A stretch of 64,000 nt of DNA from a virus (lineage: Duplodnaviria; Caudoviricetes). The stretch lies in the IMG/VR virus record IMGVR_UViG_3300014039_000017, positions 82,799 through 146,798 of that record, one strand, 5' to 3'. How positions within the stretch are numbered: the first letter of the stretch is position 1; the number at the start of each line of letters is the position of its first letter. Positions 1 to 54,119 of this stretch are shown piece after piece. The translations under genes were made by a program, and so were the position numbers. Below the pieces are notes generated by a model. The model did no database searches, was not told where the DNA came from, and saw nothing but the letters and a program-made list of their open reading frames with translations.

Positions 1-3000
1 GCAGAAACAAAACTAAACGCATTAAGAAATATATCTAATTATGTCTCTAATAACAAAGATTTTACAGAAGTAATAAAATACGCTTTTGCTGCTAATAAAC
101 TAGATTTTACAGAGGAGTTACACTATAGTAAAGTTGGATTTAATGAAACACTGGATCATGATATACAAATGTATGTTCTAGATTCAACCAAATCTAAATT
201 TAATAATAGAATACAGCAACAAAAGGAATTATTTGTAAAAGACTTACACGATTGTGATTTTTCATTTAATGGAGATCTAGATAATGAAACTTATAATCAA
301 GTAAAATCTACTATTGGTGATTCTTGGTTTGATGATAACCAAGAAATGTTAATTACAAAAGACGGTAAATTAAATCCTCTACTTGAAGCATATTATCTGT
401 CTGATATTTTATTGTCTAATGGGTATAATGATTTATTGTTTGGAAAAACATTCTTTCACCCAAATAAATACAAGCCAACTAAAGAGGAACTTGATATAAA
501 AAATAAAACTGGAAAATGACCAGAATCTTATTTTATACATTCTGAAGCATCCAGACTTAGTGCATCATATAAAAGAACTGTAATTGCTGGTGCAACTACA
601 CATACATTTTATCCTGATACATTTGGAATATCTTCTGATATTAATTTCGCTGTAATGGAAGATTATAAAGCCGATCCATATAATATGAATGGTGTAACTT
701 CTGGTGGAATTGATGCTATGGATGGCTCCGGATGATCGTCCCCAATACAATCATTGCTCGAAAATATGTCATTGCTTGATGCTAAGGTCGGATGGGATAA
801 GAAAACTATTTTTGGAGATATTGATCCAAAAACAGGATGTCCAACACTTCTTAAATGAGCTGTATATGCGTTAACTAATGAAAGAAGACGTAACTCTGAA
901 TGTAGTGTGATATCTGCAAATAGCATGTTTAAGAAAATGCATAATATTGCATTTAATAAACGGATTAATATTGCTGAGTATTATAACCCAAGTAAAGGAA
1001 CTACCACAACTGTTAATGGAAGAAAAGTTTCTGAAAGTAACTATATTTATTACCAAGATGTAGAATCCGGTAGTATGTTTAGAATAGATAGGCTTGAACA
1101 AGATCAAAATAATATAGTTCATATATTTGAAACAAAAGTAAATAATTTTGGACAGCCTATAGGAAACACCTTTGAAAAAAGACGAGTCCAACTTAATACT
1201 ATAAATGCAATTGATGAAATATTTGGTGGCGCATACGCAATGCAAAAAGATGACTCTGGACGACTTGTGTGAAGTGACGTAAATAATAGATTGTGCGCAA
1301 ATATTGTATGTAACGAGGATTTAAAACAAAATATGATTGCTTATGCTGTTAATAAATCAGCAATTAAAGTTGGAGCAAGAAATGTTAATTTAAGGTCTTC
1401 TTGAACAGATAATTCAGAATTGTTATATACAAATATGTCATTAATATTTGGTGGAGTTCAGATGGACGCAGATCACGTTTTAGGGGATGATACAGATGTT
1501 ACAGAAATGTCACAAATGATTTCATCGCTTATACAATCTGGGCTAGCCAAAGAACAAGCTATTGATATTTATAAAGAAATTGGTGAGGTTGTTACAGAAT
1601 CTTTAAAAAATAAAAATTATCTAGTATATAACGGAGATTATTCTGCTGTACATGAACTGCTTGGTAGAGAGTTTATTAATTCTTTTTCTAAAGGTACTAG
1701 AGATACAATGGGATTAGCTCAATCATATCTTATTAAAGCGTCTCAAGAATTAGCAAAAGATCCCAACGCAAAAATTAATATTCCGTTTAGTGACCCTACA
1801 GTACTTGGAATATTTACATCTAATATAGCATCTGAGATTAATAAGAAAGGAATTAAACGTAAATATGCTGGTATTGCATCAGTACAAGTTCCATCAAGAG
1901 GAATGATTCAATACTTCAATTATAATGGAAGTCAGATGCTTTATACAACTTTAGCTAAAAAAATTAGAGAAGCAGGATATCAATTTACAGCAAAGCAATA
2001 TATAACAACTCAAAGATATAATAAAGATACTGGTAATTTTGAAATATATGGATTAAATAGGAATGGGGAATTAGCTACAGAAATACATCCTTTTATAAGG
2101 CAGGTTAATCCTTGAGAATTAGATATGGGCGATACTGTAATAGTTGTAAAAAATGGAGTTGCTTCAAAACCTATAGTTCTTGATACATGAAATAATTACG
2201 ATACAATAAAACATATTACTGATGGCGTATTATATAAATGAAGTATTAGGCCAGTAGATTTAAGGCAATCCGATATAACATTTGAAGTTAATGGAAAACG
2301 TTATTCTATATATGATTTAGACTCAGTAAGAGCCACACACTATATAAAAGAACTTATTAATAATAAGCAATCTTATTTTGATTTAACTCCAGAAAAGAAG
2401 CTTGTAGTAGATAATACTATAGGTGATGCCGATAAAAATAATCTTATTAAGTTATATAAGACTGCAAATTTAAAAGTTAATGAAGATTTAAAAAAGATTA
2501 ATAACGGAATTAAAATAGGTAGAAATTCTGCATTTGGGGATGTAATTGGGAGAAAATATGTTAATTTAACAGGATCAGTTAATGGTATAGAAGATATTAT
2601 AATAGCAAATAATAATATAAATAACAGAGAACAATTATTTGAGGATATTATAGCAAATAGTAAAAATATTAACGTTGTTAGATTCTTAAAAAGAATTGTC
2701 CAAGAGTTTAATCTAGATCCCCAAGAATTTACGGCTGCTTATACACAGTACTCGTTAGATAGAGAAAACGAACATAATTTTTCAAATGTAAATACAAGAT
2801 TTGCAGAAATCATAACTGGAAAAATAAATAAAACTCAATTAGGATTACGTGATGATGATTCTATAGCGGATATTAAAGATGCAAACTTTTTTATAAATAG
2901 AATTAAAGAAAATGAGTCTTTAAGAGATAGTAATATTAATACAAATAGTTATGATGCTGTATTAAAGGGTATTAACGGAGAAAACTTATATGTAAGGATA

Positions 3001-6000
3001 TCGCCACTGCATACTGAAATAGATGCGGTTACCGGAGAAAAAATTCCAGAGCAGCTTCCAGGATGATTTGTAAATAATACTACGTTTGATAATGTAGATG
3101 GAAATATATATTACAAAGACAAAGTATTATGCACAGCAGATGGAAAACAATTCTATACGCAGCCAGGAGTTACCAACGTAAATAATATGGTTGTTCTAAA
3201 TAGTATAGAACAATTACAAGAGCTACTTGATTCCGACTTATTTAATAGAGTTGAATATAATTATAATTCTAATAATCTAAATGAAATACTGAAATACAGA
3301 GGATATATTAATGATGAGGGTTTAGTTACAAAAGAAATAAAGTTTCATCAAGCAGCAAATCGTTTATCTCCTGTAGAGACAGACAGATTCAGACTTAGAT
3401 ATATAGTAGGAAAGCAGATTGAAGTTGGAACAGATATAACAAAACTTGATGTAGAATCATTGATTGAAGACCTAAACCAAGAGGTAGAATATGAAAAAGA
3501 TAGAGATATTAAACAAATAGCTTATAATAGGTTTAATGCTTTTAAAAAACAGCTTGAAGTCATTGGAGCACGTATTCCAACGCAAAGTATGCAATCTTAT
3601 ATGGGATTGAAAATTGTGGCATTGACAAATAGCATTTATAACGAAGTATATATTCCTGCTGCTATGGCCTGGCTTGAAGGATCTAATAAAAAAATTAAAG
3701 CCAAGTTTGGAAGTATAGTGTATTTTTGCTAACTTGCATTAGCAAAAATATGTATATATGAATATTGATATCGAAAAATTTAAAGCTGAAGTAAATCTTA
3801 AGAAGAATTACCAGCAATTATCAAATGAGTTTAATTGTTCTATAAAAACAATAAAAAGATATGCAAAAGAATTAGATTTAACAGTTGCAACTAAAATTTG
3901 TAAATCAAATGATCCAGAAGTTATAAACTCAGTCAAAAATCTTTTAGAGAAAAATAAAACTAATTTAGAAATTTCTAGAGAACTTGGAATCAGTCCAACG
4001 ACTGCAAGAAAATATACAAAGTTACTTGGAATGGAAACAAATACAGTAAGAAATAAATCGTTAAAAAGTCCAATAACTTTAACTAAAGAACAAGAAGAAA
4101 TAATTTATGGATCTATGCTTGGAGATATGTGTTTAACGACTACACAAAAATCGTATAGATTTTCCATATCTCAAGGAGGTGGGCATGAAGAATACTTTGA
4201 TCATCTAGCTAATATATTTTCTAATGTTATAGGAAAAGTAAATAAAACTCCAAGATACGATAAAAGAACCAAGTTGTTCTACAATAAATTTATGGTTAAA
4301 TTTTTAGCATCTACATCTTACAAAAAGTATTATGATATAATGGTTATAAATGGTAAAAAGACTGTAACGGAAAAGTGGGCAAACCATTTAACTGCTAGGG
4401 GATTAGCTTATTGATTTATGGATGATGGTTGTGTAAACGGAATTATAGCTACAAATGGATTTGCATTAGAAGAAGTTAATTTATTATCTCGTGTAATATT
4501 AAATAAATTTAATATTCACACAGATGTTCAAAAAGTTTCAAAGAAAGAACAATGAATATTACATATTCAAGTAAAAGACAGAAAGGCGTTTGAAGATATA
4601 ATAAGACCTTTCATAATTCCATCAATGATGTATAAGTTAAAATATAAATAGTTGGATCCTAACCTCGTGAACTGCGGGAAACTCCTTAGAGACTTAACTA
4701 CTAACTATATATAGAGATATATATAGGGTGTAACTAATCATTACAGTATAGTAAAAAGGCTAAGTATTGGACAATCCGCAACCAAGCCTCTAAAATAGAG
4801 GAAGGCTCATCGACTATCGAAAAGCGTGCAAGCGAACCAAGTAGAGTAGCGTAAAAGCGAAGTGCGAGGCGTGTTTTTTAAACACGAAGATATAGTCAGG
4901 TCAATTATTAACGTAATTGTGCGTTTAGGACTATGATATAGATAAACTATATATGATGGGTTATGAACTTAATTCAAAAGGAGGATTTGTAGGATTCTCA
5001 AGGCTGCTTAATGACGCTTTAACTCAACAAGAATTTGATGATATTCTTGATTTACCAAAACCAAATGGAATAAAATATGTAATTGGAGAAAATTCTGATT
5101 CTGGATTAAGTGAATTGGATGTTTTAAGTGTTATCGGGGACGTGGCACAAAGAGATTATACATTACTTAAAAATGTAATTAATTCTGATTCAGATCAAGT
5201 GCATTTTAAACCAGAAGTATCAAAATCTAGTAGATACCGATTCTTAAACATTCTTAATAAGCATAGTCAAACTAAATTATCTAATTATACTAAAGAGGCT
5301 GCTTTAAGAAATTCTGTTGTGTATAAAATTAATACACTGCTTAGAAATGCAAGATTATCTCCATTGGCACATAAATCCGTGGATGATAGTATGGCGCTGT
5401 TTAGAAATATAGCGAAGAAATCAATGCTTGCAGCAACAGAGCTTTCTCTATCATCTGATAATCCTCTTGTTAAATTCCTTATGCAAACTCAAAATATGGT
5501 TGGTAAGGATGTAATTGGTATTACGGCGGTTGGAATGAAAGTATTCTTTGGAGTTACTACTGCATTAAATCAAACAATAACAGATTTAGTTGAGCATATA
5601 AAAACAAAGGATTTTGTTTCAGCACAATCAGATTTTCAAAATTTATTGTTTAAAGATCCTATTACAGGACAAGATATAACATTGGCTAATTTAAATTTTG
5701 AACCATTGCTTGATTTGCTTAATAATTTATCAGAACAAGACAAATTAGATGTAAATAATGCTTTGGGGGATTATTTAAATGAATTGCCAAAAATAATAGA
5801 ACAATCACAACACACCGACGCAGCGGAAGCAATCTCAGGTTTGCTATCTGCGGCCACTGATTTTTGTAGCAACAAAAAGAAACACTTGCATATTTAAATT
5901 TTTATAAGTAAATTTGCATAAACTTAAAATATATTAATTATGCAAAAAATTTCTGAAGAAAAAATTAATCAAATGTATGAACTTTATAAACAAAATTTTA

Positions 6001-9000
6001 ATAAAGTTCAAATTTCAAAACAATTAGGAGTTAATGAAGAAACCGTTAGAAAATATTTAACAAAAAGATTTAATATTCCTCTTAAAGATTATTCTAAAAA
6101 AGTAGATCAACAAAAATTTGAAGAACTCTGAAAACAAGGAAAAACAGATAAAGAAATATCTGATTTTTTTGGAGTTTCTGAATTGACGATTAAAACTTAT
6201 AGGACAAAAGGCGATAACGCTGGAAAATTTAATGTTGTTAGATATTTTTCACAAACAGAACAAAAGCTTACGTATGAACAAGATCAATTTATTAGAGGAT
6301 CTCTTTTAGGGGATTTAAATTTATCTAAACCAAAGACAAATAGACATATAAACTCTCGTTTAGCAATTGTTCAATGTGAAAAACAAAAAGCGCTTTTTAT
6401 AAAAAAAGTAGAAATTTTAGGAGATTTTATGGGAAATTATAAATTAGTAGTCCCGAAACCTGATACTAGAACAGGAAAAATATATACTTCTTATAGAGGA
6501 AATTCGAAATCACATAAAGTTTTTACGGATTTATATAATGAGTTATATATAAATGGAAAGAAAACAGTAACAAAAGAGTTTTTAGATAAAATAACTTCTC
6601 CTACAGCATTAGCGTTTTGATTTATGGATGATGGAACTTTTAATGGAAGTATTGCAACTAACGGATTTTCAGAAAACGAAGTTGATTTGTTAATTAAATG
6701 ATTATCTGAATACTGACATATAATTTCGTATAAAGAAAAAAATTTAAACAAATTTATAATTAGAATATCCGAAAAGTCTAGAAAATATTTCGATAATTTG
6801 ATTAAACCTTATATAATTCCAGAAATGGAATATAAATTAAAATACAAGTAATAAGACAATAGTTAGTGGATAAAACCTCGTGAACTCAGGGAAACTCCTT
6901 AAAGTCTTATATACCAAGCAATTATAGTAATATAATTGTGGATGAAGTAACTACTCATGTATGGTAACAAGTATAAGAATTGGACAATCCTGATCTAAGC
7001 TTCTGAAAAGAAGAAAGAGCAACGACTAATTTGTAGGGTTTAAGTAAACCCGAAGTGCGAGGAATCTAGAAATAGATTAAGATATAGTCTGATCTTTTAC
7101 GAAAGTAAAAGAGATTATACGGAAACGGTATAATCGTAACACAAATGAATGCTAAAGAGCTAATATTAGCCAAAATTAACGCTACAGCCGATTTTGCTGA
7201 TGCATGAACATTTTTGATTTCTACTGGAAGAACTCCAGAAGAAATATCAAAAATTATGATGTCTCCAATATTTTCTGTAGTACAAAAATATAGTCACTCA
7301 AATCTATTCTCAACAATAGGCTTAACTAACAGTAAAAAAACAGCTATTGAATTTACACTAGGGTTAAAACAGTTATCTGGTATAAATCTTAGAGATTTAA
7401 AACTTATAGTTGGGGCTTATAGAGGTAAGGGACTAACTTGAGATAATAAATGTTTCATAGATAAATTGTTATATGAAACCGAGAATGGAGAGATTAAATT
7501 AGATTCTACTGGAAATCCAATTAGGAGGCAAGTAAAATTAGTTGATGATAAGTATTTAAGTTCAGAAGACGGAATATTTGTTCAGGGAAGCGAAGTACGT
7601 AAAAACATGTTTGAGTTATTTAGTGATCCTAATAACGCCAATAGTACAATAATATCTAAAATACTTCTTGAACATATTGATTATTTAAGAAAACATTCAT
7701 CTGATTATAATGTTAATTCTGACGATTCGGATTATGATCCTAGTATAGAGGAAGACTATAATGAAATTGAAAATTATGAAAATGATTATCAAGATCAAGA
7801 ATACGACTTAGAAAATGATGAGTTAAACGATGAAATAAATAATCAAGTTAATAATTCCGACTTTGGGTCTGATATAAAAATTAAGGTTACTCTAAATTCT
7901 CTTAATAATATAAGAAGATATGTATCAAAATGCATAATTCCTAAAAATGAACAAATCGCAAAAATTAATGAACAGGATCCAGAAGCTATTACAACTTTGA
8001 CTGATTTCTATAATAACGTTCTCCCAGCGGTTGAAGAGCAAACAATCTTGGGGGCAATGCTCGGAGTAAATCAAGGACTTAAGAGTAAATTATCAGATTT
8101 TATAGGCGTCCTTAAAAGAGTTGAAAACTTTGTAAACGCAAGAATCCCTAGAGATCAAAATGGTCCAATATACGAAGCATTTAATATAATTAAATTTTTA
8201 GAGGATGATGAGTACAGGCAAGACTGAATACAAAATTATGCATCAATGAAATCTTATAATAATATATTAAGAACTATTTCAGAAGTACCTAATTTTGCAT
8301 CAATGTATAAACAAAATGCTTTAACATATAGATTGGAATCCCATTCAGCAAGAAATAAAATTAATATTAAACTTGAAAAAGCGATACTTGAGTATAATAG
8401 ACGTGGAAGTTCTGCTACTAGAAAGTTAACTGGTGATGAATGAAGCGTTATGGATAAGTATACTAGAGATTTAATTTTAACTAATTGATTGCTTACACAG
8501 AATATTAGTTTTACAATTCCAAGTAATCAAGATTTTTACGATAATGGAAATCTTGTATATATAAAAGATGATATTGATGATAATGGAAATGTAATTCATG
8601 ATCATTCTGATGCAAGAAAAATTAATTTAAATACATTTAGTGGACAAGCTTCATTTATAAGATACTTTGAAAATACATTATTTGACATATTAAAACAAAG
8701 GTATGCTAATGATGAAGATAAGAAAGCATTTTTAAATAATGTCGTAGCATCTCCGGATTTTAGTAGTGTTTATAACCAAAAAACACATCATTTAAAGCTA
8801 TCTATTAATTCTATGCTTGCAGATAAAAATCAAGGGTTAAAAACTATATACAGTGAAATCCTAAAAGCATTTAATAATCTTTCCACAGAAAAGATTCCAG
8901 AACTAAATAACATGACTTTTGGAGATGCTTTATTTATATACAATTCTCTTGTTTATAAGAATGCATTTACAGAAAAAGGATTTACCAGATTATTTGAATC

Positions 9001-10213
9001 GCTAATATTTGATGAAAACTCAATAATTAATTCTTATGTAAGCTTTTTATCTGACCTAGATAGTAATACTATCGATACAGGATCTGCGAATGATCTAGAT
9101 AGCGATCTTGAAATAAACGATAACGGAACATTTACTTGAGGAATGATAAGAGGTAATATAAATGATTTTCTTAGAAGATTGGCATTTAATCAAGTATCTG
9201 CTAATAAATTTGGGGTATCACTTAATAAAGATTCTGAAAAATCTATATCAGAATTAGCGTTTCAAGATATGTTTGGGCGTCCAACTAAAAACGAATATGG
9301 AATGGACAAACCATCTATTTATATAGGTGTATCTAATGCAAATGATTGAACTTCAGAAATGCCTTGTATGACACAAGATTTTGAAGATGCTACATTTAGT
9401 TATGGAGAAAATTATAACCAATCTAATTGTTATAGGTGAAATTCTGAAGTAGTAATAAGAACTGTTATTGACACTCTTGCAGATAGACTTAATTTGACAG
9501 TTGGGGACAATTCCGATTCCGATATAGTTTTATTTGATAGTAATAAATTACCATCATGAGCGGAATATAATAACGGAGTAGAATCACCAATAAGTTATAA
9601 GAGTTTCTCTGATTATATGAGAGTTATGAGGAGTTCTGCATTTATTAATAATGGTAAAATATTTATTAATACTAACAAAATGAATGTGGATACAACAGTA
9701 CACGAACTAATGCATATATTCTGTGCAAATCTTAAGTTTAATAAAAATGAGGATATAGTTAAACTATATTACGATGCTATTGATGCAGCTAATAATTTAT
9801 ATAAAACTAAAATGCGCAAAGAATACGTTGAAATGCGAGAGCAATACAATGGTGATTATGGTTCAGATTTCAAGGAAGAGTTGCTAGTTAAACTAATGTC
9901 AGATCAATTTACTCATTCATTTAAAAATAGTTTTGGATCACAAAAATGAGTTGATGATATAAAATCTGAAATAGTTAATACAATTAACCAAATTTTTGCT
10001 TCAAATGTAAAAGAGGATATAAATGTAAAGAAATTAGGTGATACAAGATTAGCTGATTTCTTGCAGGCATTTAATTCTAAATTATTTGATACAGATGGAA
10101 ATAACCTTTTAGCAAATATGCAGCTTGATCAAGAAATGAAGACCATTAAGCGAATTCTTATTAATAATGCAGAAGATCCTACTAAAAATAGTAAAATAGA
10201 ATATAATTGTTAA
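1..10213 (+). CDS. Giant virion DNA-dependent RNA polymerase (crAss-like, two-barrel catalytic subunit) with C-terminal zincin-like domain; 5'-truncated; 3 exons (<1-3684, 4929-5861, 7148-10213); TGA=Trp
   Basis: Track ORFs share one frame per exon and are broken only by TGA. Splicing restores ARIPTQSMQS...WLEGS|DYDIDKLY (DxDxD catalytic motif) and SAATD|NAKELILAKIN. HELMH...EE near the C-terminus. Stop TAA 10211-10213. Confidence 0.9.
3685..4928 (+). mobile_element. Group I intron #1 (in RNAP, just before DYDID) with LAGLIDADG homing endonuclease
   Basis: Exon ends in U (GGATCT|) and intron ends in G (TTTAG|GAC). IGS GGATCCT at 4654-4660 pairs with exon AGGATCT. Core motifs AACTGCGGGAA, AATCCGCAACCAAG, TCGACTA and AAGATATAGTC. 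Confidence 0.93.
3758..4651 (+). CDS. LAGLIDADG homing endonuclease with N-terminal HTH repeats (TGA=Trp)
   Basis: IIYGSMLGDM motif. TGA readthrough at 4412 gives LAY-W-FMDDG. Ends TAG 4651. Confidence 0.9.
5885..5916 (+). promoter_or_regulatory. Bacteroidota sigmaA-type promoter for intron #2 endonuclease
   Basis: CTTG...N20...TAAATTTG, 23 nt upstream of ATG 5940. Confidence 0.65.
5940..6851 (+). CDS. LAGLIDADG homing endonuclease with N-terminal HTH (TGA=Trp)
   Basis: Joins track ORFs 5940 and 6183. Motifs FIRGSLLGD and LAF-W(TGA)-FMDDG. Ends TAA 6851. Confidence 0.9.
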
Positions 10214-10214
10214 T

Positions 10215-13200
10215 ATGCCTAATTGTAATATAAACTTAGTCTTAAAAGGCAAAGTAAATACTACATTTAATAGCGATAGAGAGCTTGATGCAGAATTGCT
10301 GCATCGAGCCTCATCGCTTAAAAATTTGTATTTAAAAAGTAATAAAAAATTAGATAAAATATTTCAAACGCTATCTCCTCAAGAAGATGCTGAACAAAAA
10401 ATTAATGAGATTACTAGTATTTATAATAAAGCGTTAAAAGAGCGTGGTATTAATAAATCTAGAATAAAGTTGAAAGACGAGTTTGAAGAAGCTATAGAAG
10501 GAGACGATGATTATAATGGAGGTAAAATTTCTGGAACTATATCAATGTCTAATATAGTAAGCTTAATTGGAGGCAAAAAAGACTTGAGTGAAGCAGCAAT
10601 TACAGCTATTAATAAAGGTTATGAAGAAAACTTTAGAGTAAAAAAGTGTAAAGAACTTGGCTTAGAAGATTCAGAAATATATAATCCTACAATTACGGCT
10701 TTGTGAGAGCATGAAAAAGCTAAAAATATTTTTTCAGCTGAAATTGGTGAGGATGTTCATAAAATAATGGAGTTAATATTTAGACAAGTATCAGATCCAT
10801 CTATTAAAATAGACGAAAGCTCTTGTAAATATTTTAAGGGCTCGGTATTTACAGATACTTATAATGTGCTTAAAAATATTGCTGATAGAATTATTAAAGA
10901 ACATCCAAATGCTAAATTCTATCCCGAATTTAGTGTATTATCGAAAACTTTAGATAATAATACACAAGAATCTCTAAAAGCCGCTAATGCGCCAGGAGTT
11001 ACACAATGCTCAGGACGTTTGGACTTACTTATTTTAAATGAAGACGGATCTGTTGAAATATATGATTGAAAATCATCATTAAAACCAGTAGGAGATTGAG
11101 CTGAAACAAATAATAAAGTTTGTAACGAACACGGTTGACAATCTTCTGCTAAAAAAGCCTCTAATTTACTTCAAATTGGAGGTTATGCAGCCATACTTGA
11201 ACAATATGGTCTAGACGTAGGTGATAAAAAGTTAGTAAATTTTAAACTGGATTTTGATGTTGAGAAAGGCTCAGACGGAAAATGACATCCAGTTAATGTT
11301 AAAACAGTTAAATACGATACTCCTGTTGTTGGATCAAAAGGAATATTGCAAACATCTTTGGCAACGTCAAAACAACGACAAATGGAGTATGTATTTACTA
11401 ATAATAAATTTATTGATACAACATCATTAAATCCATCTAACGAGATGCTTAAAAATTTGTTTCCAGATACTGATTTGGCTAATACCAAAGTACAGCAGTT
11501 TAAAGCATCTATTGATTATTACAAGAAAAAACTTAATTTTATTAGAGAAATAACTGATCCTAATAGTAGTGCTTATAAGCAAGGTTTTAGATTCTATTTT
11601 GTAAAAGATGGGATTCCAACTCAAAGTAAAAACCTTGTATTCTGTAAAAACATGGAAGATGTTGACAAGCAACTTGAGAAGTATGTTTCTGAAATAGAAA
11701 AATTCAAAAGCACAGAAATGACAGCTTTTGCAAAAAACTTACAAAAGGTAATGGATACTAAAGGTCAGTCTGATAATGCTATATATGGTGATTGGCTTAA
11801 TGCATTTGGTGAAGAACAGCAACAATTCTTAATAACAGAATTTAAAAAATATTATAATAATGGATGAAACTTTGTTGCAGATGACGCATTAAATTCAAAT
11901 GGAATATTTTTATTTAATAAAAACGACCAAATGGATATGATTATTTTGGATTCACATAATGTCAGACAACAATTAACCATAAACGGACAAACAAATATAT
12001 GCGGAACAAAACTTAAAGATGGTGAAGATGGGACCGATCCATATAACCTCTTTAAAGCTGAATATGGTAATTTGTTACTAATGAAAGGAGTGTCAATTAT
12101 TGCGTCAAATCCAAAACTTTTAAATAATTGTAAACTAAATACAATGAAAGTTATAAATCCATGACATTCTACAGAATTTATGTCATATTCTAATTCTAAA
12201 CTTGTTAATAACTGAAACTTTTTAGCAAGGCATAATTCTGAGTATAAAATTCCAACTGTGTCAATGGATTGATTTTTTGATGACGTATCATCTTATATGA
12301 ATGTTGTTCTTGAGTTAAGTAACAGTCTTGAAAATAATATATTTATGGATAAAGCAAGACCTACTGCTGAAGATGCAAATTATAATAATGATACAATATC
12401 TGAAATGATGTGAGAAATGCGTAAGAATTACAAACAAACTTACGATGATCCACACACAGTTGAAGGAGCTGTTTATTTTAATTTATCACAAGCTTTACTT
12501 GCTTCTAATGGAATATCATTTACAGATGAAGAAGATTACGGTAAATATTTAAATTCCGGAATTATTCCTTCTGGAACTTATATTACAGCGGCAGACCAAT
12601 CTAATTCAGTCGGAGTTAGAACAATGGGTAAATTAATGTCTAGATATAGAGACTTATATACTACTGAATTCACTAATATTGCAACCCAATTCTCGGAACT
12701 TGTAAGTAAGGTATTTAAAGCATGGGGCTTTAATCCTAGTATAGATAGTCCTACTGCATTTTGAAAACAATTTTTTGAGTTAGGAGATAATAATTCTCCT
12801 AATCAAAAAGGTTTTAGATTAAAAAACCCAAATAGCTCATTTTTTACTACAGGAAGAACTAAAGAACAAACAGAAAGTGCCCAAAAATTAATTGAATTTA
12901 TAGGTGATTATATGTTTAATTTTAAAAACACTAAAATGGGGCCAGAGCAAATTGAAATGGCAAAATTAAATGGATCTTATTATGAAATGCCTTTACAAGA
13001 AGCGAATACTGGGCAATTTATAAGAGACCAATATAAATCTAATGGTATTAAAGGTGTTTTAAAAGGAATAGTTCAAAATGTACGTTATAGAATTAAGCCA
13101 GCTGAGGAAGAAATATTTAGAGGCGGAAGAGTAAAACAAAGGCAATTTGAGAAAGAGAAAAGTGAGTACGCAGGAGCATTTAATAGATATACAGATATAA

Positions 13201-21913: not shown

Positions 21914-22058
21914 CGTCTATAAAATTATAATCATACCCCATATTTTTAGAGTACATCGCATGTAAAAGATCTATTGCTTCCATTCTTGTATTTGCTGTTA
22001 TCTCTACTATTCTATAATCATCTGTATGATTATTTACTTCAAACATAAATTTAGACAT
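21900..22058 (-). CDS. Small hypothetical protein
   Basis: Packed ORF, likely start MSKF. Confidence 0.5.
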   Translation of the reverse strand: MSKFMFEVNNHTDDYRIVEITANTRMEAIDLLHAMYSKNMGYDYNFIDDENN

Positions 22059-31680: not shown

Positions 31681-31685
31681 AGAGA

Positions 31686-31723
31686 TAAAAAATGAGCCAG
31701 AGATTTCACAACCTCTGACTCTC
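31686..31723 (-). terminator. Probable terminator after 31760-32260 gene
   Basis: GAGTCAGAG/CTCTGGCTC stem followed by ATTTTT. Confidence 0.6.
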
Positions 31724-31759
31724 AAACGTCTTATTAAAAATTCTATTATGAAAAGAAAA

Positions 31760-32260
31760 CTAGTTTCCAAAAACAATATATGTACCAAGCTTAGTTTTAG
31801 CTGAAGGTACATATTTCAATGTAAATGCAAGCTCATGATCCTTATCTACACGATAAACATGCTTACATACCATATCTTTCTTAAAATCTTTCATTGCGGC
31901 CTTAGCCTTACGTGTAGCTTCGCCCTTGGTTTCTGCTTCTGCAACAAATTCGCCATCAATAGTTCTAATCTCAAGAACTCTCTTCTTTGAAAGAGGCCCT
32001 TCAACGACATTATTTACATACTCATAAGGTCTTTCACGAGTATCAGCAGAACCAGGCTCCTTTACAACAATACAAGCAACTCCAGTGGTATCTGTAAGCT
32101 TGTTCTTATCAAGCATCTCCTGGGCAAATGTATCAAAATCTGTAGGATTAAGACTCTTAAATGAAAGAGTTACATTCTTTACGACTGTAAGACCATACTG
32201 GCTAACAGCAATTTCCTTAGCCTCATTAAAGCTATAAGCGTTAATTTCAAATTTTCTCAT
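31760..32260 (-). CDS. Hypothetical protein with own promoter and terminator
   Basis: 166-aa ORF flanked by promoter and hairpin. Confidence 0.75.
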   Translation of the reverse strand: MRKFEINAYSFNEAKEIAVSQYGLTVVKNVTLSFKSLNPTDFDTFAQEMLDKNKLTDTTGVACIVVKEPGSADTRERPYEYVNNVVEGPLSKKRVLEIRTIDGEFVAEAETKGEATRKAKAAMKDFKKDMVCKHVYRVDKDHELAFTLKYVPSAKTKLGTYIVFGN

Positions 32261-39498: not shown

Positions 39499-39501
39499 AA
39501 T

Positions 39502-42497: not shown

Positions 42498-45076
42498 TTA
42501 AAATCTATTTTCATAATCAGTTATAAAATTCATAGGTCTTGTTTCTACTTTTTCATAGTTTAAGACCTTTTTTAATTTATCTTCTGAATCTATAACAATA
42601 TAGTCAGAAGTATTGCTATTTGCAAACCATTTTAATTCTTGAGTGTCTGCAATAACAAGAGTAAACATTTCAGCTGTTTTACCTGGCTCAAATCTACAGA
42701 TTCGGCCTGATTGTTGAACCGCAGTTATTTTAGAACTATTTATGTTCATCCTAACTCCAACAGATAGCCCTTTTAAATCTACGCCTTCATTTAAAGCTTT
42801 AGAGGAATTCAATACACCTGAAGCAGAATTATTAAAATCTTCTATAGCTTTTTTATTTTCAGATTCCTTTTTACCTGAATGAAGAGTTGTTCCACGTTTA
42901 ATAGATTCTGCAAATTTAATTGTAGGGCAAAATGTAATGCATTTTTTATCTTTACGTGCATCTAGAATCATTCTACAGGTTTCTATCTTTTTAGGATGGT
43001 TTTCTATAAAATCTTTTCTAGCATGTAAAGCTTTCATTCATTGCGCAGATTGAGCTAATACTTGTTTTGGATTACTTCCAATTTCTTTAGCATATTTATT
43101 GCGAAACTTCCAATCTTGCAAACATCCCATCGCAATTTTAAAATCTCATTGAAAGAACGCAAAATAACTATTAAATTTCTTATTTAATTCTTTATATTGA
43201 GTTAAATCAACATTTAAAAGAACTAAATAATTTTTAACTGGAGCAACCCAACCATTTTTAAGCGCTTCATCTAAAGTGATTGTGTCACATACAGGAGCGT
43301 ACTTTTTTATTATTATTTCCTTTCCATCAAGTCTCTCAAGCGTTGCGGTTAAACACATAATAAATGTATAATTAACAGCTTTAAATAACTCTGAAAAGGT
43401 GTCTGAAGCCATTCTATGGCATTCCATTTATATTAACTTATACTTTCGCATAAGATTAGACTATATCTTATTTATAATTACTATAAATTTTGCTATTTCC
43501 AAATACTGTTGTTGTGCATATATGCGCAATATTTGTACTCCTAAAAGGATAGTCGTTGAGCCTACATCCTATAAGGATGTTTGGTTGCGGATTTCCCAAT
43601 CTTTTTCTTTTTTACTATACTGAGGTAATTATTCTCACCGTTATATATGTTGCCATTATAATTTAGTAGAAAAAGCTCTAAGGGAGTTCCCGACAATTAA
43701 GCAAATTTAAAGTCAACAAATTATTCATCGACTATAAGTAAGTCAGTATTTCACTGCTTTTTTATCACTGTGTTAATAACTTCAACATCACAATTTTGTA
43801 TTAATCCAAAATTCATTATAGAAGTTAATCACTGCTGTTTTAAAAAGGTTGTAGGTACAACAACTAAAACATTTAATGTAGGACGTTTTTTACAAAGGAG
43901 TTTAATTGCTTTTAAGGCTGTCCGGGTTTTCAGTTTTGTTATCCTAAAGGCTTTTTATCCTTTAGCTCTATATATTTCTATATAGCTCGGCGTACATTTT
44001 CACCCACTTATTTCAGTTGGGGTGTTGAGCACTCTTGGGAACATTATATTCTATTTATAGGTTCAGTTCCTACGCTCTACGGTGACTAATTATATTATTA
44101 ATTAGTTTACCTCGGTATTATCCGTTAGGACTTTTACCGATTTTGCTCAATAAAATTCTCTCATTCTTGAGGAGATCGGCTTTCTTGTTTAAAGAAAGTA
44201 TATTTTAAATATTTTCTTTTAAGATATACTGTAGAATTGTTATAAATATAATCTAAAAACTTAAATGTATCTTTTAAGCTAAAATATATAATTCAAGTTT
44301 CATTTGAATGTCGTTTATCATGTAAAAAATTTATATTAAAACCAGAATATTCTCCAATTTTAATTAAAAACTGTTTTGTCCCAATAATTGAAATATTAGG
44401 AGATACAATTGTTTTACATATATGTTGAGAAAAACATCCATCTCCATCAAAATATCCACGAATAAAATGCCGAATTAAGTTTTTTGATTTAAATATTGAT
44501 TCTTTCGGAAAATTAAGAGTTAAAGATTTATTCGGAGTGCAGCCATAATTGTTAAGAATTGTTCATAAATGTTTATTCGTAACACATCATCTACATCTTC
44601 CAAAAACTTTATCTTTAATCTTACTTTTACTTATTTTAATATTTTCCCCGTTATATCCAACAAATTTATTAAACTTATATAAATGTTCGGTATCCTTTTC
44701 GCACAAAGAAATTTCAAAAGTATAATGCGCTTTTTTATTTTCTATATTAGCAATATATCCATCAGCGTATATAAATCCTAATCAGTATGCTTTTTCTTCA
44801 GCATCAATAGAATCAAATATATTTTCATTAAATTTTGATATATTTCATCTATTAATAATTTTTATTTTAGCACTTTTAATTATTTTAGTAATTTCTCATC
44901 TAGATACATTTTCTATTTTAGCTAATTTACTTAATGAATATCCATTCTTGTAATCACTTATAATATCAATTCTATTTCTCATATAAACCTACCCCAGTGG
45001 CATAACATATTGAGCCACAGCCTTTTACATTAATTCACCTTTTTATTCCAAGTTCTTGTCGTTCATCCCTAGTCAT
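42498..45076 (-). CDS. SF2 (DExH) helicase, 3 exons (45076-44987, 43930-43727, 43424-42498), TGA=Trp
   Basis: Spliced ATGVG|KT (motif I), VVVPT, LIVD|ECH (motif II), LTAT, LNEGVD and QQSGRICR. Confidence 0.9.
43425..43726 (-). mobile_element. Group I intron #6, ORF-less (302 nt), in DECH motif
   Basis: GTCGAT| ... TAAATG|GAA. IGS GTTGACT (43711-43717). AATTGTCGGGAA, AATCCGCAACCAA, ACGACTA and AAGATATAGTC. Confidence 0.92.
43931..44986 (-). mobile_element. Group I intron #7 in Walker A of SF2 helicase, with LAGLIDADG homing endonuclease
   Basis: GTAGGT| ... AAAACTG|AAA. AAATCGGT/ATACCGA P4; variant P7 GAGCGTA/TACGCC. Confidence 0.87.
44134..44982 (-). CDS. LAGLIDADG homing endonuclease (missed by track; TGA=Trp)
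   Basis: KAY-W-LGFIYADGY and HFIRGYFDGDG. Ends TAA 44134. Confidence 0.88.
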
Positions 45077-45987: not shown

Positions 45988-47874
45988 TTAAAATAATGTA
46001 AGTTGCTCTGTTTCTAAAGCATTTATTATTTTATAAATTTCATTCTTATAATAAAGATAGTTTATATGTTTATCTTTAGTTGATAGATTATCAAATTTGT
46101 TAAGTAATGTAACAGAAGAAGAACTGCATAATGTTGTAGGTCTTATTTTTTTTCCGGTATAATCCATCTCATATTTTATAAGTGATGAACCATATTTAGA
46201 CATATAAAATCTATTAATTCTAGTTACTTCTTTTCCACCGTACATTACGTGAAATTTCTTATCCACTTTTTGATAAGTGCAAAACTCTCTTATATCATCA
46301 GAATTATATAAAGTTTCTTCAATAGGTATTTTATCAACAAAATATTTACAAATTGTTTTAGGAATAATTAACGGTTGTAAACCTTTACCAAGAGTTGGAG
46401 TGTCAATAAATATTCCTTTCTTCTTTATAAGAGATGAATCTTTTGTTTTGTTATAACCTTCTTTTACAGCAATATAATCATTTATAGCAAATTGATACAT
46501 GGCTTCAAAATAGTCCGCTTCCATTGTAAGTAGACTAAATTTTTCAAAAGATTTAATTATATCATTTGCTTTATCTAGCATATTTCGTTTAATTAAAACA
46601 AAAATTCCATCGGTATTATATTGAATAATTCTACAATTAGTTCCTAAAATAAGCATTTCTGCTAACTTTAAAAGAAATAGTTGTCCGTTCATCCTAATTT
46701 TCATTACAGACTTTGGATCGTATAATCATGAATACTCTGATTGCATATTCCCCGTAGCGGAGTTTAATGCAAGTTTAAGAGTTTCATTCTTAACTTTATT
46801 TCCATTATGTTTAGCTTCTATTCTTTCCTCTCTAATTTTTTTATATACATTTAGAAATTCTACACCTAAATGTTGAGGATAAAATTCGTAACTAATTAAT
46901 AATGAAGGATATAGCGACATCGCATCTCAGTCTACAAGAATTTCATCGTCGGTAGGAATTATAATCTCAGGTTTACAAATATTATGTAACCCACCTACTC
47001 CAATGGAAATCAATGAGTTATAAAAATAAAATTGTTTATTTCAACCTTTAATTCCAGGGCTAACAGTTAATTCTTTCATTTCATTTAAAAGGTCTTGTAG
47101 AATTTTAGTTTCAAATGAAATTTTAGGTAATATTACCTCATTTAATTTAACCTTATCGCGCGGAGATCTTAAATCTTTAATATCTCCTCAAGTTTTTCCT
47201 GTAGCTTGTAAATATTTTGTTTTTAGAATTTCTTTTCCAATACCGACACCATCAACGCTCATAACATTAACTCCGTATTCATCATGAATACCAACACGTA
47301 AATCAATGTCTTTTTGTTTTAATTTTAATAGTTGGTATGTTGAATTAACATCATTATGATTATATGCAATTACATTATCAATTTCAGATTCAGATATATT
47401 AGAATTAAAATCCCCTTCGTATTCTTGAACGTTAGGATATTGCATTGTTACTTGTAGTTCTTTTAATCCACAACGTAATTTTTGAGAAAACATCATTGTT
47501 AATAAATCAAAAGATGGAAAGCAATGTGCATGCTTATATTTTGCTCAAGAATCAAATTTATCTCCAGAGTTTATAATTTCATCACTAAATTTTTTTAATT
47601 CTCTAGTAACTTCTCATACTGGTTTTTGAGATAATATATGCTGATTTAAAATTATATAATTAATAACAGGATCGTCATAATGTCGATTGTTATACCCGCA
47701 TCAAATAATGCCAGAATTACTAAATGTAGATACAATAAATCCTAATTCGTTTTTTCTATTACTTATTTCATAAGTACCAATTTTTTCTGAATTGGTATTT
47801 AAAATTGTGCATGTAAAAAGATTTGGAAATATTTCTACATCATAAACAAACACAACTTTATTATAAAGTAACAT
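45988..47874 (-). CDS. DNA polymerase family B (TGA=Trp)
   Basis: VYDVEIF and GYNNRHYD exonuclease motifs; D-W-DAMSLYPS, KLALNS.TG, YNTDG and KKKG. Three track fragments in one frame. Confidence 0.93.
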
Positions 47875-48737: not shown

Positions 48738-48739
48738 AT

Positions 48740-49238: not shown

Positions 49239-49606
49239 TATACCACGTGAATTCTATAGATACACTCATGAAGGTCTAGCTGATATTGATTTTCTAGAAG
49301 ATTATACAATTTACTAGAAATAGTATATTTATGTCCACTAATAAATAATTTCATAATAAAATCATCATTAGTAGTAAAATATCTCAATATATCTTTATCA
49401 TCAAATTGAATTAATCCTTCTTCAAGAATAAATCCAGTTTGTTCAGAAAGATATATAGAATCAACCATGCCTTCATTATATATATCTAAATGTTCAATAA
49501 ATCTCTCAATTCTCGGATCAAGAATTAAATCAGATGGATTATCATGATTTAAATCTGGATACCAATGTTCACCAAGTTTCTTAAATACTAGATTTACAGA
49601 TCTCAT
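49238..49606 (-). CDS. Hypothetical protein
   Basis: Packed ORF. Confidence 0.65.
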   Translation of the reverse strand: MRSVNLVFKKLGEHWYPDLNHDNPSDLILDPRIERFIEHLDIYNEGMVDSIYLSEQTGFILEEGLIQFDDKDILRYFTTNDDFIMKLFISGHKYTISSKLYNLLENQYQLDLHECIYRIHVV

Positions 49607-50039
49607 CTTCAGGAATATTTAAACACGTTGCACTATGTGTACAATATAAATCCGCCATATTATTAAATGTATTGTTTTCGTGACCTTTTACTCAGACCAT
49701 AGTAACGTTATGATATGATAATAAATTAGTTAATTCTAATCATAAATCTAAATTCTTTTTAGAAAGGTCTGATTTTTCAATTCATTTAAAACAAGATTCG
49801 GAGTTTATACTACCAACAACATATTGTGAATCGCTATAAATAGTAATATTTACAGACTCTTTAAAATATTTTAAAGCTTCAATTACAGCTCTAATTTCAC
49901 ATCTATTATTGGTAGTATATTTCCAACCTTGATATAGCTTTTTTATTATTTTCCCTTCTTTTAAAATAATTGCAGCTCAGCCTCCAGCTTTTATAGAATC
50001 TTGATAAGAACCGTCTGTATAGGCTTCATATGAATCCAT
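49581..50039 (-). CDS. rnhA: Ribonuclease HI (missed by track; TGA=Trp)
   Basis: YTDGS...GG-W-A; TTNNRCE; YSDSQYV; NLDL-W; W-VKGH...N.MAD. Confidence 0.92.
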
Positions 50040-50768: not shown

Positions 50769-51030
50769 TATGATTTTCAGTTAAGATAAAGTCGGAGATA
50801 ACGTAATTATCAACTTTATCTCCAATTGTAAGAAATGGCCCACCATCAAAGTCTATAAAATTAATTTTAGTATAGTCTCCTGGCTCTGTTCCAATTCTTA
50901 AATATCCGGACTCTGTAGAACATTCTTTTAAAGAATTATCTATTTCATATAAATCCGAATCTTCAATTTGAATTAACCTACGATTCCACGGACTATCACA
51001 ATGCCCTTTAAGTTCAATTATATTTCCCAT
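50746..51030 (-). CDS. Hypothetical protein
   Basis: Packed ORF. Confidence 0.6.
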   Translation of the reverse strand: MGNIIELKGHCDSPWNRRLIQIEDSDLYEIDNSLKECSTESGYLRIGTEPGDYTKINFIDFDGGPFLTIGDKVDNYVISDFILTENHNVLVRLG

Positions 51031-52610
51031 TAAAATACAACTTGATTTAACACTTTAGGAACTACAACAACTTGTGCAGATAAATATAAATTAGTAACTG
51101 ATACAGCATTCTCAAGTGCCAATATAGCAGCCTTAGCTGGATCAATAATTCCTGCGTCATACATATTTACTATATTTTCACTATTAGCATCAAACCCACG
51201 AGTTTCGGTCACTTTAGGAAGAATTCTATTAACATCCTTACCACAACTCTTTATAAGCAACTCTATTGGAGTACACAAGGCGGATTTAATAGCTATATCA
51301 GTTATATTGCTTGAATCAAAAGATCTAGCAGCGTTATAATAAGTAATACCTCCGCCAAGCACAACTCCTTCTTCAATAGCAGCCTTAGTTGCTGCAACCG
51401 CGTCATCTACACGATCCTTACGTTCTTGCATTTCAAGTTCTGTAGTTCCTCCAACATAAATTACACAGATACCTCCAGTAAGTTTAGCGAGTCTTTCTTT
51501 ATTAAACTTAATAAGAAAACTATCTTCTGTAGTAGAATCTGCTTCTAATTGTTTAATAGAGTTTCTTATAGATGCTATTCTATCATTTAAACTATCTTTA
51601 GAACCTTTGCCTCCTATAATTGTAGTAGAAGTTTTAGTAATTGTAATTTTATCACATTGGCCTAAATCAGTAATAACTACATTATTAAGCTCAATTCCAG
51701 AATCATAAGAAATATTTACACCGCCTGTAAGAACAGCAAGATCTTCAAGAACAAGTTTACGATAATCCCCAAAAGACGGCGATTTAATAGCACAAACTTT
51801 AAGAGTTCCATTAAGTTTATTAAGCTTTAAAGTCTCAATAACTTCATCATCATAATCTTCTGCTATTAAAAGAATTGCTCTATTAGCTCTTATTACATCG
51901 TTAAGAACGCCTGCTATATCTCTCATAGAAGTAATTTTGTGTTCAGTGATAAAAATATATGGATTTTCAAGAATACAAGTATCTTTTACATAATCAGTAC
52001 AAAAATGAGGAGCAATATAGCCTTTATCAAACTGCATTCCATTAATAATTTCTGATCTTGTATTAACATTAGAAGATTGTTCAACGGTAATAATACCATC
52101 TCTACCAATCTTTTTAAATGCATCTCCTATAAGAGTTCCAAGTTCAGAATCATTATTAGCAGAAATTGTAGCAATATTAGTTATATCTGAATCTTTAATT
52201 GGAATAATATTAGATTTAATATATTCCATTGCTTTTTCTTTAGATTTTATAAGAGCATTTTTAAGCACGACTGGATTGTAACCATTTACAAGTGCTGAAT
52301 CCATATCGTTTATAAGAGATTTAGCTAATACAATAGTTGTAGTAGTTGCATCTCCTACATTAGCAAGCATTTTAAGTGATGCTTCCCTAATTATTTGCGC
52401 TCCAGTATTTTCAAAGAAATCTTCAAGTTCAATTTCTTTTGCAACACTAACTCCATCCTTTGTAATTCTAGGAGATTTGGTGACATCTCCTATAACAACA
52501 CAATTGCCTTTAGGTCCTAAAGTAGCCGATACAGCATCAGCAAGAATGTTAATGCCTTTAAGAAGCTTGTCTTTAGCTTCTTTTCCAAACAAAATATCTC
52601 TAGCAGGCAT
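51030..52610 (-). CDS. groEL: Chaperonin GroEL-like
   Basis: TLGPKG, ITKDGVSVAKEI, GDATTT, GMQFDKGY, KDRVDDA and GIIDP motifs. Confidence 0.95.
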   Translation of the reverse strand: MPARDILFGKEAKDKLLKGINILADAVSATLGPKGNCVVIGDVTKSPRITKDGVSVAKEIELEDFFENTGAQIIREASLKMLANVGDATTTTIVLAKSLINDMDSALVNGYNPVVLKNALIKSKEKAMEYIKSNIIPIKDSDITNIATISANNDSELGTLIGDAFKKIGRDGIITVEQSSNVNTRSEIINGMQFDKGYIAPHFCTDYVKDTCILENPYIFITEHKITSMRDIAGVLNDVIRANRAILLIAEDYDDEVIETLKLNKLNGTLKVCAIKSPSFGDYRKLVLEDLAVLTGGVNISYDSGIELNNVVITDLGQCDKITITKTSTTIIGGKGSKDSLNDRIASIRNSIKQLEADSTTEDSFLIKFNKERLAKLTGGICVIYVGGTTELEMQERKDRVDDAVAATKAAIEEGVVLGGGITYYNAARSFDSSNITDIAIKSALCTPIELLIKSCGKDVNRILPKVTETRGFDANSENIVNMYDAGIIDPAKAAILALENAVSVTNLYLSAQVVVVPKVLNQVVF

Positions 52611-52612
52611 AA

Positions 52613-53704
52613 TTAAAATCCAATTTTAGTTTGTTTTTGTGTACAATCAGTCTCTTCGTAATTATAAATTTCAGCAAGAGTCATAGGCTTATATTCAGAA
52701 AGTTCTACACCTTGCTTATTAAGAAGATTTTTAGTTTTTTCTGTAGAAAGTTCTTTAAATTCATAATTAACAAAACACCTACCTTTACGAAGAAGTGCAG
52801 TATCAATCTTATTTATATCCGCATTAAATGTACATATAAATTTAATGTTAAATATATCTGACATTAATCCATCTGCCATATTAAGTATATTAGCTATAGC
52901 TCCACTAAAATTACCGTCAGTTCTATCTATGAGAATTTGTTCACAATCTTCAAGTATAAATATACTATTTCTATTGGAAAGCATAAATGAAATAAATTCT
53001 GGAGATGCTAAATGCTCCGCAAGTGCATTAGTAACTAGAATATAGCTAGCAGGATGTGTTGTGATAAGATTTCTAAGTATTGTACTTTTGCCACTTCCGA
53101 CCATTCCTCTTAAAATGGCAATACCACTTGTTCTTTCATCTATAAACTTAATTAAATCATTATATACAGGAAGAAAATCATCGTTATAGTTCTCTTTAAG
53201 ATCTATATTAGTTGGCTCGATTTTAGATGTAATAGTATAATAATCACCATCATCTCTGCAAACCAATTTAACATTAGCTGCCTCGGAAATATCCTTTTCT
53301 TCAGGTAGATATTTTAGAATTTTTTCAATAAATTGATCCGGATTACCATTTAAATAGTAATATGTAATAGAATCGTTATCAATAATAACATATTCTTCAT
53401 TACTAGTCATAAATAGTATTCCATCAATAGTAGTTTCGTTTACCTTACTTTCATCTTCGTTATCTTCTACACAAGATGTCACACTTCTATCATATCTACT
53501 ATAAATAGATATAAGAGTTCCTTTAAAATCTTTAAGTAATTTATCGAGGTCTACTTTATCTAAATCAAAATTACCATCAATACAATAAATATGTTTTTTA
53601 GGATATTTTCCAAAAACATTGATAAAAAATGGAATAGGTTTTACTTCTCCGTACGCGAAACTATTATTATAAGTTTCTTTCGTTAATTTTATTTCTGAGT
53701 TCAT
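52613..53704 (-). CDS. AAA+ ATPase
   Basis: GMVGSGKS, ILEDCE, TFN and D.ALLRKGR motifs. Confidence 0.85.
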   Translation of the reverse strand: MNSEIKLTKETYNNSFAYGEVKPIPFFINVFGKYPKKHIYCIDGNFDLDKVDLDKLLKDFKGTLISIYSRYDRSVTSCVEDNEDESKVNETTIDGILFMTSNEEYVIIDNDSITYYYLNGNPDQFIEKILKYLPEEKDISEAANVKLVCRDDGDYYTITSKIEPTNIDLKENYNDDFLPVYNDLIKFIDERTSGIAILRGMVGSGKSTILRNLITTHPASYILVTNALAEHLASPEFISFMLSNRNSIFILEDCEQILIDRTDGNFSGAIANILNMADGLMSDIFNIKFICTFNADINKIDTALLRKGRCFVNYEFKELSTEKTKNLLNKQGVELSEYKPMTLAEIYNYEETDCTQKQTKIGF

Positions 53705-54119
53705 TTAAAAATTGATTTTGTGTTGATTCGTCCCAATCAGAAAATAATTCTTCATCACCTAAAGAATCTTTCATATAAAGAGAATTATTTTTTATATAAA
53801 ATTCATACTCTTCTCCTTGTAAAGTTCACTTTCATATTCCCGATTGAATAAGTCTATATCTAAATTCCCCTTCAGTTATACTAATAATCTTCTGTTTTGC
53901 TAGTTTATGATAATTAGTATCAATATCAATAAGTTCCGGATCGTATTTAAGTAAAATTTGTCTAATTGTCTTTTTAGATGGATTACCTAAGGCTCTTTGA
54001 ATTTCTCCGTAAGAATAACTGTTGTTCCTAAGTGCCAATATAGCTTTTTCTAACTCTGATGCATCTTTATATTGAGATACTAAGTCAGAATATTTATCTA
54101 ATATTTCTTTAAGTTTCAT
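53667..54119 (-). CDS. Hypothetical HTH-like protein (TGA=Trp)
   Basis: SYGEIQRALG. Two TGA readthroughs extend it to TAA 53667. Confidence 0.6.

Follow-up and report, generated by a model that had tools for sequence, protein, structure and literature searches.

Evidence for a virus-borne switch of UGA from stop to tryptophan in a crAss-like gut phage

In the native form of translation table 4, used by the Mycoplasmatales, Spiroplasma and many mitochondria, UGA is read uniformly as Trp by a tRNA with a UCA anticodon and release factor 2 (RF2) has been lost. Among phages, Yutin et al. 2021 (PMC7886860) describe recoded crAss-like genomes that often carry suppressor tRNAs and in which recoding is found mainly in late genes, together with large genomes of the Zeta group that are intron-dense, one of them with a PolB gene that is both intron-split and TGA-rich. 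Babkin et al. 2025 (PMC12386605) added the Zeta phage Lera, which has TGA within its TerL, RNAP, helicase and structural genes and a tRNA-Sup-TCA, while Borges et al. (10.1101/2021.08.26.457843) treated the code switch as a lytic timer and described Agate and Jade as TGA-recoded gut phages. Peptide validation is reported by Peters et al. 2022 (PMC9523058) for TAG-to-Gln recoding (code 15) in crAss-like phages. Here we analyse a stretch of 64,000 nucleotides (the window), the final 64 kb of the 146,798-bp virus record IMGVR_UViG_3300014039_000017 in IMG/VR, which carries a gene for an opal suppressor tRNA(UCA) and in which TGA appears to serve as a codon for Trp. An earlier note on positions 1-54119 of the window had proposed that genome-wide recoding of TGA to Trp hides about 25 intact genes there.

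As in native table 4, UGA would be read as Trp in this system by a tRNA with a UCA anticodon; whereas native table 4 is the code of the cell, uniform and accompanied by the loss of RF2, the code described here is virus-borne, graded by gene block and, as we infer, used within a standard-code bacterial host. With the recoded phages of the Zeta group the record shares a crAss-like TerL, portal and family A DNA polymerase (PolA); it too has a large genome, conserved genes that many endonuclease-carrying inserts interrupt, in-frame TGA in the genes for TerL, polymerase, helicase and structural proteins, a tRNA-Sup(TCA), some genes that keep the standard code, and the reverse transcriptase of a diversity-generating retroelement. 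The features compared with that group include its size (146.8 kb at ~84% completeness, with related contigs of 160-167 kb) and its density of homing-endonuclease open reading frames (ORFs), seven per 64 kb. It differs in having two tRNAs, where most Zeta genomes in the published sections considered have roughly 17-34 and a few have 4-6; in its portal, which is ~25% identical to those of named Crassvirales and 45% identical to that of an unclassified standard-code contig; and in the extension of TGA well into the replication genes. With Agate and Jade it has in common early genes compatible with the standard code, a suppressor tRNA, TGA-rich structural genes and the absence of TGA as a stop. 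Unlike the phage maps shown by Borges et al., in which the replication machinery keeps the standard code, PolA (TGA:TGG 7:0) and the helicase, primase and DnaB-like genes here need suppression; and unlike in Jade, a code-change module made up of tryptophanyl-tRNA synthetase (TrpRS) and release factor 1 (RF1) was not found in the ~84%-complete record.

The phenomenon is thus already known (Yutin 2021; Borges 2021; Babkin 2025), and the record matches it in every tested feature; its particulars, namely a set of just two tRNAs, an unusually deep recoding of replication genes, an early boundary that is very clean and endonuclease genes that use TGA almost purely (26:1), are variations within a known kind. 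It adds one more well-resolved case of virus-borne code switching and opens no new question. The earlier note's remark that stop codons are reassigned in crAss-like phages agrees with this record: the phage is crAss-like, and TGA recoding has been published for that group. We consider it very likely that this phage, of ~150-175 kb, infects a standard-code host, probably a member of the Bacteroidota, and switches UGA from stop to Trp during infection. Early genes would be translated with the host's code; tRNA(UCA) would have a promoter to itself, receive Trp from the host TrpRS and, once charged, outcompete host RF2 at UGA; and the replisome, homing-endonuclease, virion and packaging genes would be made only after the suppressor has accumulated.

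TGA as a sense codon and the residue it encodes

Gene calling with table 4 and with table 11, a comparison that the earlier note had put forward, gave much higher coding coverage when TGA was taken as sense. Across the whole genome, ORFs of at least 100 amino acids (aa) cover 57% under table 11, a figure that rises to 92% once TGA is sense but only to 61% or 79% when TAG or TAA, respectively, is made sense instead; for ORFs of at least 300 aa the corresponding figures are 16%, 65%, 16% and 22%. Coverage of positions 1-54119 of the window rises from 64% to 92%. Two independently assembled relatives that likewise need TGA = W, here called L006 (80% PolA identity) and L007 (57%), gain strongly from the same change (58% to 84% and 68% to 94%), whereas the standard-code relatives L011 (91% to 92%) and L008 (69% to 76%) barely gain. 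In the window, table 11 yields strings of short same-frame fragments that table 4 fuses, bearing out the observation that such fragments are split only by TGA; seven fragments at 10215-14660, for example, become a single ORF with 23 in-frame TGA. This gene lies in the plus-strand arm, of which the window contains the end:

1-14894 (+): end of the virion and cargo arm, from table 4 and table 11 ORF lists and codon counts
1-3732 (+): giant ORF, partial, 9 TGA (table 4 ORFs)
4953-5897 (+): ORF without TGA (ORF list)
7145-10213 (+): giant ORF of 1022 aa, 10 TGA and no TGG (table 4 ORFs)
10215-14894 (+): giant ORF of 1559 aa, 23 TGA and 5 TGG (table 4 ORFs)

The estimate of about 40 TGA against about 8 TGG that had been made by hand for the giant plus-strand genes was roughly right (10:0 and 23:5, plus the 9 TGA of the partial gene).

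There are 366 TGA codons across the genome. Up to position 54119 in-frame TGA occurs in 30 of the 55 ORF segments that end there or before (111 TGA in total), so that the figure of about 25 affected genes had the right order and was a modest undercount. Essential genes are among those affected (15 TGA in TerL, 3 in the portal gene and 7 in PolA). In the TGA-sense gene set, in which stops are limited to TAA and TAG by construction, 108 genes end in TAA and 25 in TAG; the commonest overlap between neighbouring genes is of 1 nt (TAATG type, 19 cases), which agrees with the description of TAA and TAG stops that overlap the next start. Full-length table 4 products of this phage, PolA and the anaerobic ribonucleotide reductase (RNR) activase NrdG, are present in public protein collections at 100% identity. 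Table 11 would mis-annotate about half of the genome, the genes of which should be called with table 4.

The residue encoded by TGA was examined in the following genes, in which lower-case w marks a TGA codon:

3758-4651 (+): LAGLIDADG_2 homing endonuclease, TGA at the W of wFMDDG (PF03161, E = 6.7e-34)
5940-6851 (+): second LAGLIDADG_2 endonuclease, 4 TGA and no TGG, wFMDDG (PF03161, E = 2.5e-30)
22051-22311 (-): thioredoxin (PF00085, E = 1.2e-13)
27102-27614 (-): NrdG, TGA at codons 22 and 37 (PF13353, E = 8e-43)
28695-29180 (-): HNH endonuclease ORF between the two pieces of NrdD, NLEw (PF13392)
45988-47874 (-): PolA, 7 TGA and no TGG (homology to Crassvirales polymerases)
49581-50039 (-): RNase H, 4 TGA including that of wVKGH (PF00075, E = 2.9e-29)

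All four motifs in which the earlier note had placed TGA at a Trp position are present in the sequence: wCSQC in the thioredoxin, NLEw in the HNH ORF, wFMDDG in both LAGLIDADG_2 genes and wVKGH in RNase H. A tabulation of homologue residues at TGA, which the note had likewise suggested, found Trp strongly enriched in standard-code homologues. All 119 NrdG homologues compared (51-76% identity) have W opposite codon 22, and several of them, on contigs of more than 200 kb, are probably cellular. Each of the four RNase H TGA has W opposite it in one or both of the solved enzymes from Chlorobium and E. coli, and the thioredoxin TGA is the W of WCxxC, at which W stands in two PDB thioredoxin-family alignments among the matches listed. 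Five of the seven TGA columns of PolA are dominated by W in homologues. When the 15 TGA columns of TerL were compared with 150 cluster representatives, 465 of 1387 cells were W, over a background of 1.3%, and the remainder were mostly F or Y; this protein has only two columns with a conserved W, and both are TGA in this phage. The three TGA of NrdD fall on non-conserved columns (F, F and A in the best structure) and carry little weight for Trp.

Similar results came from comparison genomes in which TGA is demonstrably a stop. The TAG-recoded cr52_1 and the standard-code L008 have W at 9 of 29 TGA positions (background 1.1%), and of 21 such positions in the standard-code contig MT835470, W and Y each occupy 6 and F occupies 4 (binomial P = 7e-8). 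At TGA-aligned positions the enrichment of W is 25- to 30-fold, and W is the top-scoring residue: BLOSUM62 sums over 50 pooled residues are +143 for W, +87 for Y, +60 for F, -86 for Cys, -93 for Arg and -129 for Gly. In addition, TGA and TGG exchange in both directions at aligned Trp positions in L006 and L007, the pattern expected of synonymous codons. Taken as comparative evidence, these alignments support the interpretation of TGA as Trp.

The suppressor tRNA and graded use of TGA

The use of TGA is not uniform. The earlier note had called the recoding genome-wide, and while its reading of TGA as Trp stands, the uniformity implied by it does not: in-frame TGA is absent from the last 9 kb of the window and its use elsewhere is graded. 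The boundary coincides with the gene for tRNA(UCA), around which we identified the following features:

54645-54716 (-): opal suppressor tRNA(UCA), 72 nt (ARAGORN; Rfam RF00005, 64.4 bits)
54767-54797 (-): promoter-like site before the tRNA, TTGACA-16-TATATT (11/12), also readable as TTTG-N19-TAnnTTTG
54587-54622 (-): terminator-like hairpin and T run directly after the tRNA
53667-54119 (-): first TGA-containing gene downstream of the tRNA, 150 aa, w-K-w, both TGA conserved in two relatives
54865-64000 (-): early TGA-free block, with an IMPDH/GMP-reductase-like protein, two phosphoesterases and small ORFs
14943-54571 (-): middle block of replication and nucleotide-metabolism genes, 58 TGA and 100 TGG (codon counts, Pfam)
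57216-57389 (-): lone exception in the early block, an acidic/basic ORF of 57 aa with TGA at codon 51, six codons before TAG
58016-58087 (-): tRNA-Gln(UUG), the sole other tRNA of the record (ARAGORN; Rfam 49.9 bits in a local search)

The tRNA(UCA) folds into a canonical cloverleaf in which all stem pairs are standard, with the anticodon loop CUUCAAA, discriminator G73 and no encoded CCA. In size and arms it resembles an ordinary elongator tRNA and not tRNA-Sec, and the label 'SeC' that ARAGORN assigns to it comes from the anticodon alone. C35, A36 and G73 are Trp identity elements in bacteria. Since these are retained and no phage TrpRS was found in the record, the tRNA would be charged by the host TrpRS; a search for RF-1 domains and class Ib aminoacyl-tRNA synthetases (the class of TrpRS) found none in the ~84%-complete record. 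A tRNA(UCA) occupies the syntenic spot in both L006 and L007, between an IMPDH-like gene block and a homologue of the gene at 53667-54119, which has no Pfam or PHROG family match. The three copies (54645-54716, L006:3640-3714 and L007:2959-3032) are strongly diverged, with 27 invariant columns and little in common beyond the anticodon loop and G73, and that of L006 lacks a canonical T loop; such divergence at a fixed site suggests fast evolution or replacement. A scan for the origin of the tRNA by the same anticodon arm with CCA returned one tRNA-Trp, from a Paceibacterota metagenome-assembled genome (MAG), and one sequence that is not a tRNA; being circular by construction, it is uninformative.

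Transcription of the minus strand runs from the contig end to 15 kb, so that the first ~9 kb make up the TGA-free block and are followed by the tRNA unit. In this block, 2553 codons include no in-frame TGA and 53 TGG, with 190 TGA lying off-frame. Apparent TGA in ORFs 58315-58821 and 59819-60349 were set aside, being either in a frame that does not code or ahead of the true start codons. The one exception, the ORF at 57216-57389, overlaps the GTG/ATG start of the next gene, and its TGA and tail are identical in L006; it could yield a short product early and a long product late in infection. Beyond the tRNA, TGA accounts for 37% of Trp codons in the middle block and 72% in the plus-strand virion arm. 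The middle block contains TGG-only genes as well as TGA-only homing-endonuclease genes, and among its replication genes the ratio of TGA to TGG is 7:0 in PolA, 3:3 in the primase-like gene, 2:3 in the piece of the SF2 helicase gene and 2:1 in that of the DnaB-like gene. As GC content is flat across the blocks, mutation bias does not explain this gradient.

Seven homing-endonuclease ORFs (LAGLIDADG, GIY-YIG and HNH) at 3758-4651, 5940-6851, 17786-18736, 28695-29180, 31369-31836, 39995-40966 and 44134-44982 contain 26 TGA and 1 TGG. Within the middle block, the ratio is 20:0 in endonuclease genes against 41:100 in other genes (Fisher P = 4e-10). The endonuclease genes also have a lower GC content. 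The overall pattern is therefore one in which early genes use only TGG, the replisome needs the suppressor, the virion genes use mostly TGA and the endonucleases use it near-exclusively. It is possible, though we would call it doubtful, that the choice of Trp codon acts as a graded, gene-by-gene timer and not as a simple early/late split, with the selfish nucleases kept silent by selection until the suppressor is on. As an alternative to silencing, the bias of the endonucleases could reflect elements that circulate only among TGA-recoded phages. The clean order of a TGA-free early block, a stand-alone suppressor tRNA and its client genes, along with the depth of recoding among replication genes, could make this phage a useful test case if its host is cultured.

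A further explanation of the same pattern is readthrough that does not depend on the phage tRNA, by a near-cognate host tRNA-Trp or through a phage factor acting on RF2, with tRNA(UCA) as an accessory. Suppressor tRNAs are present in just ~35% of TGA-recoded phage genomes in published surveys (10.1101/2021.08.26.457843), and searches of this ~84%-complete record gave no RF1 or TrpRS. We regard such tRNA-independent readthrough as very unlikely, given a well-formed tRNA(UCA) with promoter- and terminator-like sites exactly at the boundary of TGA use, the location of which is kept in two diverged relatives.

Host and competing explanations

A Bacteroidota host using table 11 is favoured by three indirect signals, namely little use of Shine-Dalgarno (SD) sequences, promoter-like motifs and crAss-like kinship. 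An SD-like core precedes 4% of 96 ATG starts, against 9.8% of random positions, and the regions upstream of starts are A/T-rich and G-poor. In intergenic gaps, 25 sense-strand copies of TAnnTTTG, the -7 promoter element of Bacteroides, compare with 5 antisense copies and with 7.5 +/- 2.7 in shuffled sequence; the full Bacteroidota pattern TTTG-N18-21-TAnnTTTG was not enriched over the whole window (5 matches against 3.2 expected).

If, instead, the host were natively table 4 and Mycoplasmatales-like, the phage would mirror the code of its host and there would be no switch during infection. A GC content of ~30%, a TGA that is never needed as a stop and an excess of TGA over TGG overall would all suit such a host, but mutation bias within it would not yield an early 9 kb with 0 TGA and 53 TGG at equal GC. 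Nor would such a host explain why the phage brings its own tRNA(UCA), or why MT835470, its closest GenBank relative by portal, and L008 use TGA as a stop. With the missing SD motifs and TAnnTTTG enrichment indicating Bacteroidota, and the published hosts of recoded crAss-like phages using the standard code, we hold a native table 4 host to be highly improbable; the TGA-free early block, the phage-borne suppressor and the Bacteroidota signals together tell against it.

Equally, TGA might encode an amino acid other than Trp: Gly, as in table 25 of Gracilibacteria and Absconditabacteria, Cys or selenocysteine (Sec), or Arg. The ARAGORN label 'SeC', given on the anticodon alone, the assignment 'Trp or Arg' by tRNAscan-SE for a similar tRNA of phage Lera (PMC12386605) and the occurrence of R at 4 of 29 aligned TGA positions in cr52_1 and L008 would be compatible with this. 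The pooled scores (W +143 against Gly -129, Cys -86 and Arg -93) rule out table 25 and selenocysteine/cysteine, and this phage has TGA in the invariant-W columns of NrdG, thioredoxin and TerL. Together with the TGA/TGG swaps in relatives, a 72-nt canonical cloverleaf unlike the long-armed tRNA-Sec and a count of 366 TGA per genome, which is not a Sec pattern, they leave an assignment other than Trp exceedingly improbable. That in-frame TGA are real stops, the fragments being not single proteins but products of gene decay or assembly error, as might be feared of a metagenome-assembled fragment known from its sequence alone, has next to no plausibility when frames are interrupted by TGA only and never by TAG or TAA, when the interruptions hit conserved Trp positions and the essential TerL, portal and PolA genes, and when relatives that were assembled independently, at 57-80% PolA identity, carry these codons too.

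Several points weigh against a UGA switch during infection as set out above. In L007, TGA-containing genes lie upstream of the tRNA, which makes for a looser partition, and the early, middle and late timing assigned to the genes here is read from their order and content. TGA lies within 12 codons of the end in eleven genes genome-wide (in the window, those at 23105-23461, 23461-24654 and 44134-44982), in some just 2-5 codons before TAA; these near-terminal TGA may be former stops that are now read through, or leaky stops. The presumed standard code of the host is taken from proxies and from the published hosts of relatives, and the evidence that UGA would be translated as Trp is comparative. 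Since the record is ~84% complete, an RF1 or TrpRS of the phage could be encoded in the portion that it lacks. Finally, when compared with 31 tRNAs of a Bacteroidaceae MAG, a recovered set that lacks tRNA-Trp, tRNA(UCA) was at most 65% identical to any and had no clear nearest isotype.

Interrupted genes and layout of the record

While table 4 fuses the fragments split by TGA, the claim that recoding restores intact genes was only partly upheld, as inserts with LAGLIDADG, HNH or GIY-YIG ORFs still cut several genes under table 4, among them those for NrdD and the DnaB-like helicase and the giant genes of the plus strand. NrdD is arranged as follows:

27614-30627 (-): NrdD in two pieces, 29344-30627 and 27614-28597 (PF13597 profile positions 2-254 and 263-562; PDB alignments)

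This region has 5 TGA in all. The split of NrdD around the HNH ORF is the arrangement expected of a group I intron. A search with Rfam over the whole window (gathering threshold; E <= 0.5) returned tRNA(UCA) only and no group I or group II intron model, so the endonuclease-bearing inserts are not confirmed as introns.

IMG/VR classes the record as linear and ~84% complete (CheckV). GC content is ~30% throughout, and the sign of the GC skew flips near 15 kb, at the point at which plus-strand genes give way to minus-strand ones; the opposed arms agree with the two-arm layout of Crassvirales. Outside the window, the plus arm has TerL at genome positions 2300-5635 and the portal gene at 5879-8083, followed by tail genes and giant virion proteins (PHROG, Pfam). 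The minus arm, by the same databases, codes for PolA, a primase-like Toprim protein, DnaB-like and SF2 helicases, RNase H and a ligase, as well as NrdD, NrdG, thioredoxin, a dNMP kinase, a GroEL-like chaperonin and an AAA ATPase.

The assignment as a crAss-like gut phage is based on the sequences of TerL, portal and PolA. TerL matches phrog_6681; the portal matches phrog_6547 and is ~25% identical to the Crassvirales portals of cr113_1 and cr109_1, its nearest GenBank match, at 45% identity, being the human-gut contig MT835470; and PolA is 48-50% identical to many Crassvirales DNA polymerases. No named Zeta genome is among the portal matches listed, and 9 kb of the window had no megablast match among GenBank phages.

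TerL, at 1111 aa, is matched by ordinary TerLs of ~700 aa in two stretches (~1-353 and ~722-1106), and the insert of roughly 370 aa between them may represent an intein or additional domain. The adjacent genes for the GroEL-like chaperonin (526 aa) and the AAA ATPase (363 aa), at 51030-53704 (-), contain no Trp codon, whether TGA or TGG; their copies in L006 likewise have none, and those in L007 have one TGG each. A reverse transcriptase gene beyond the window, at genome positions 40525-41766 (L003:2525-3763; phrog_1423, E = 3e-108), adjoins that of a tail protein (phrog_5302).

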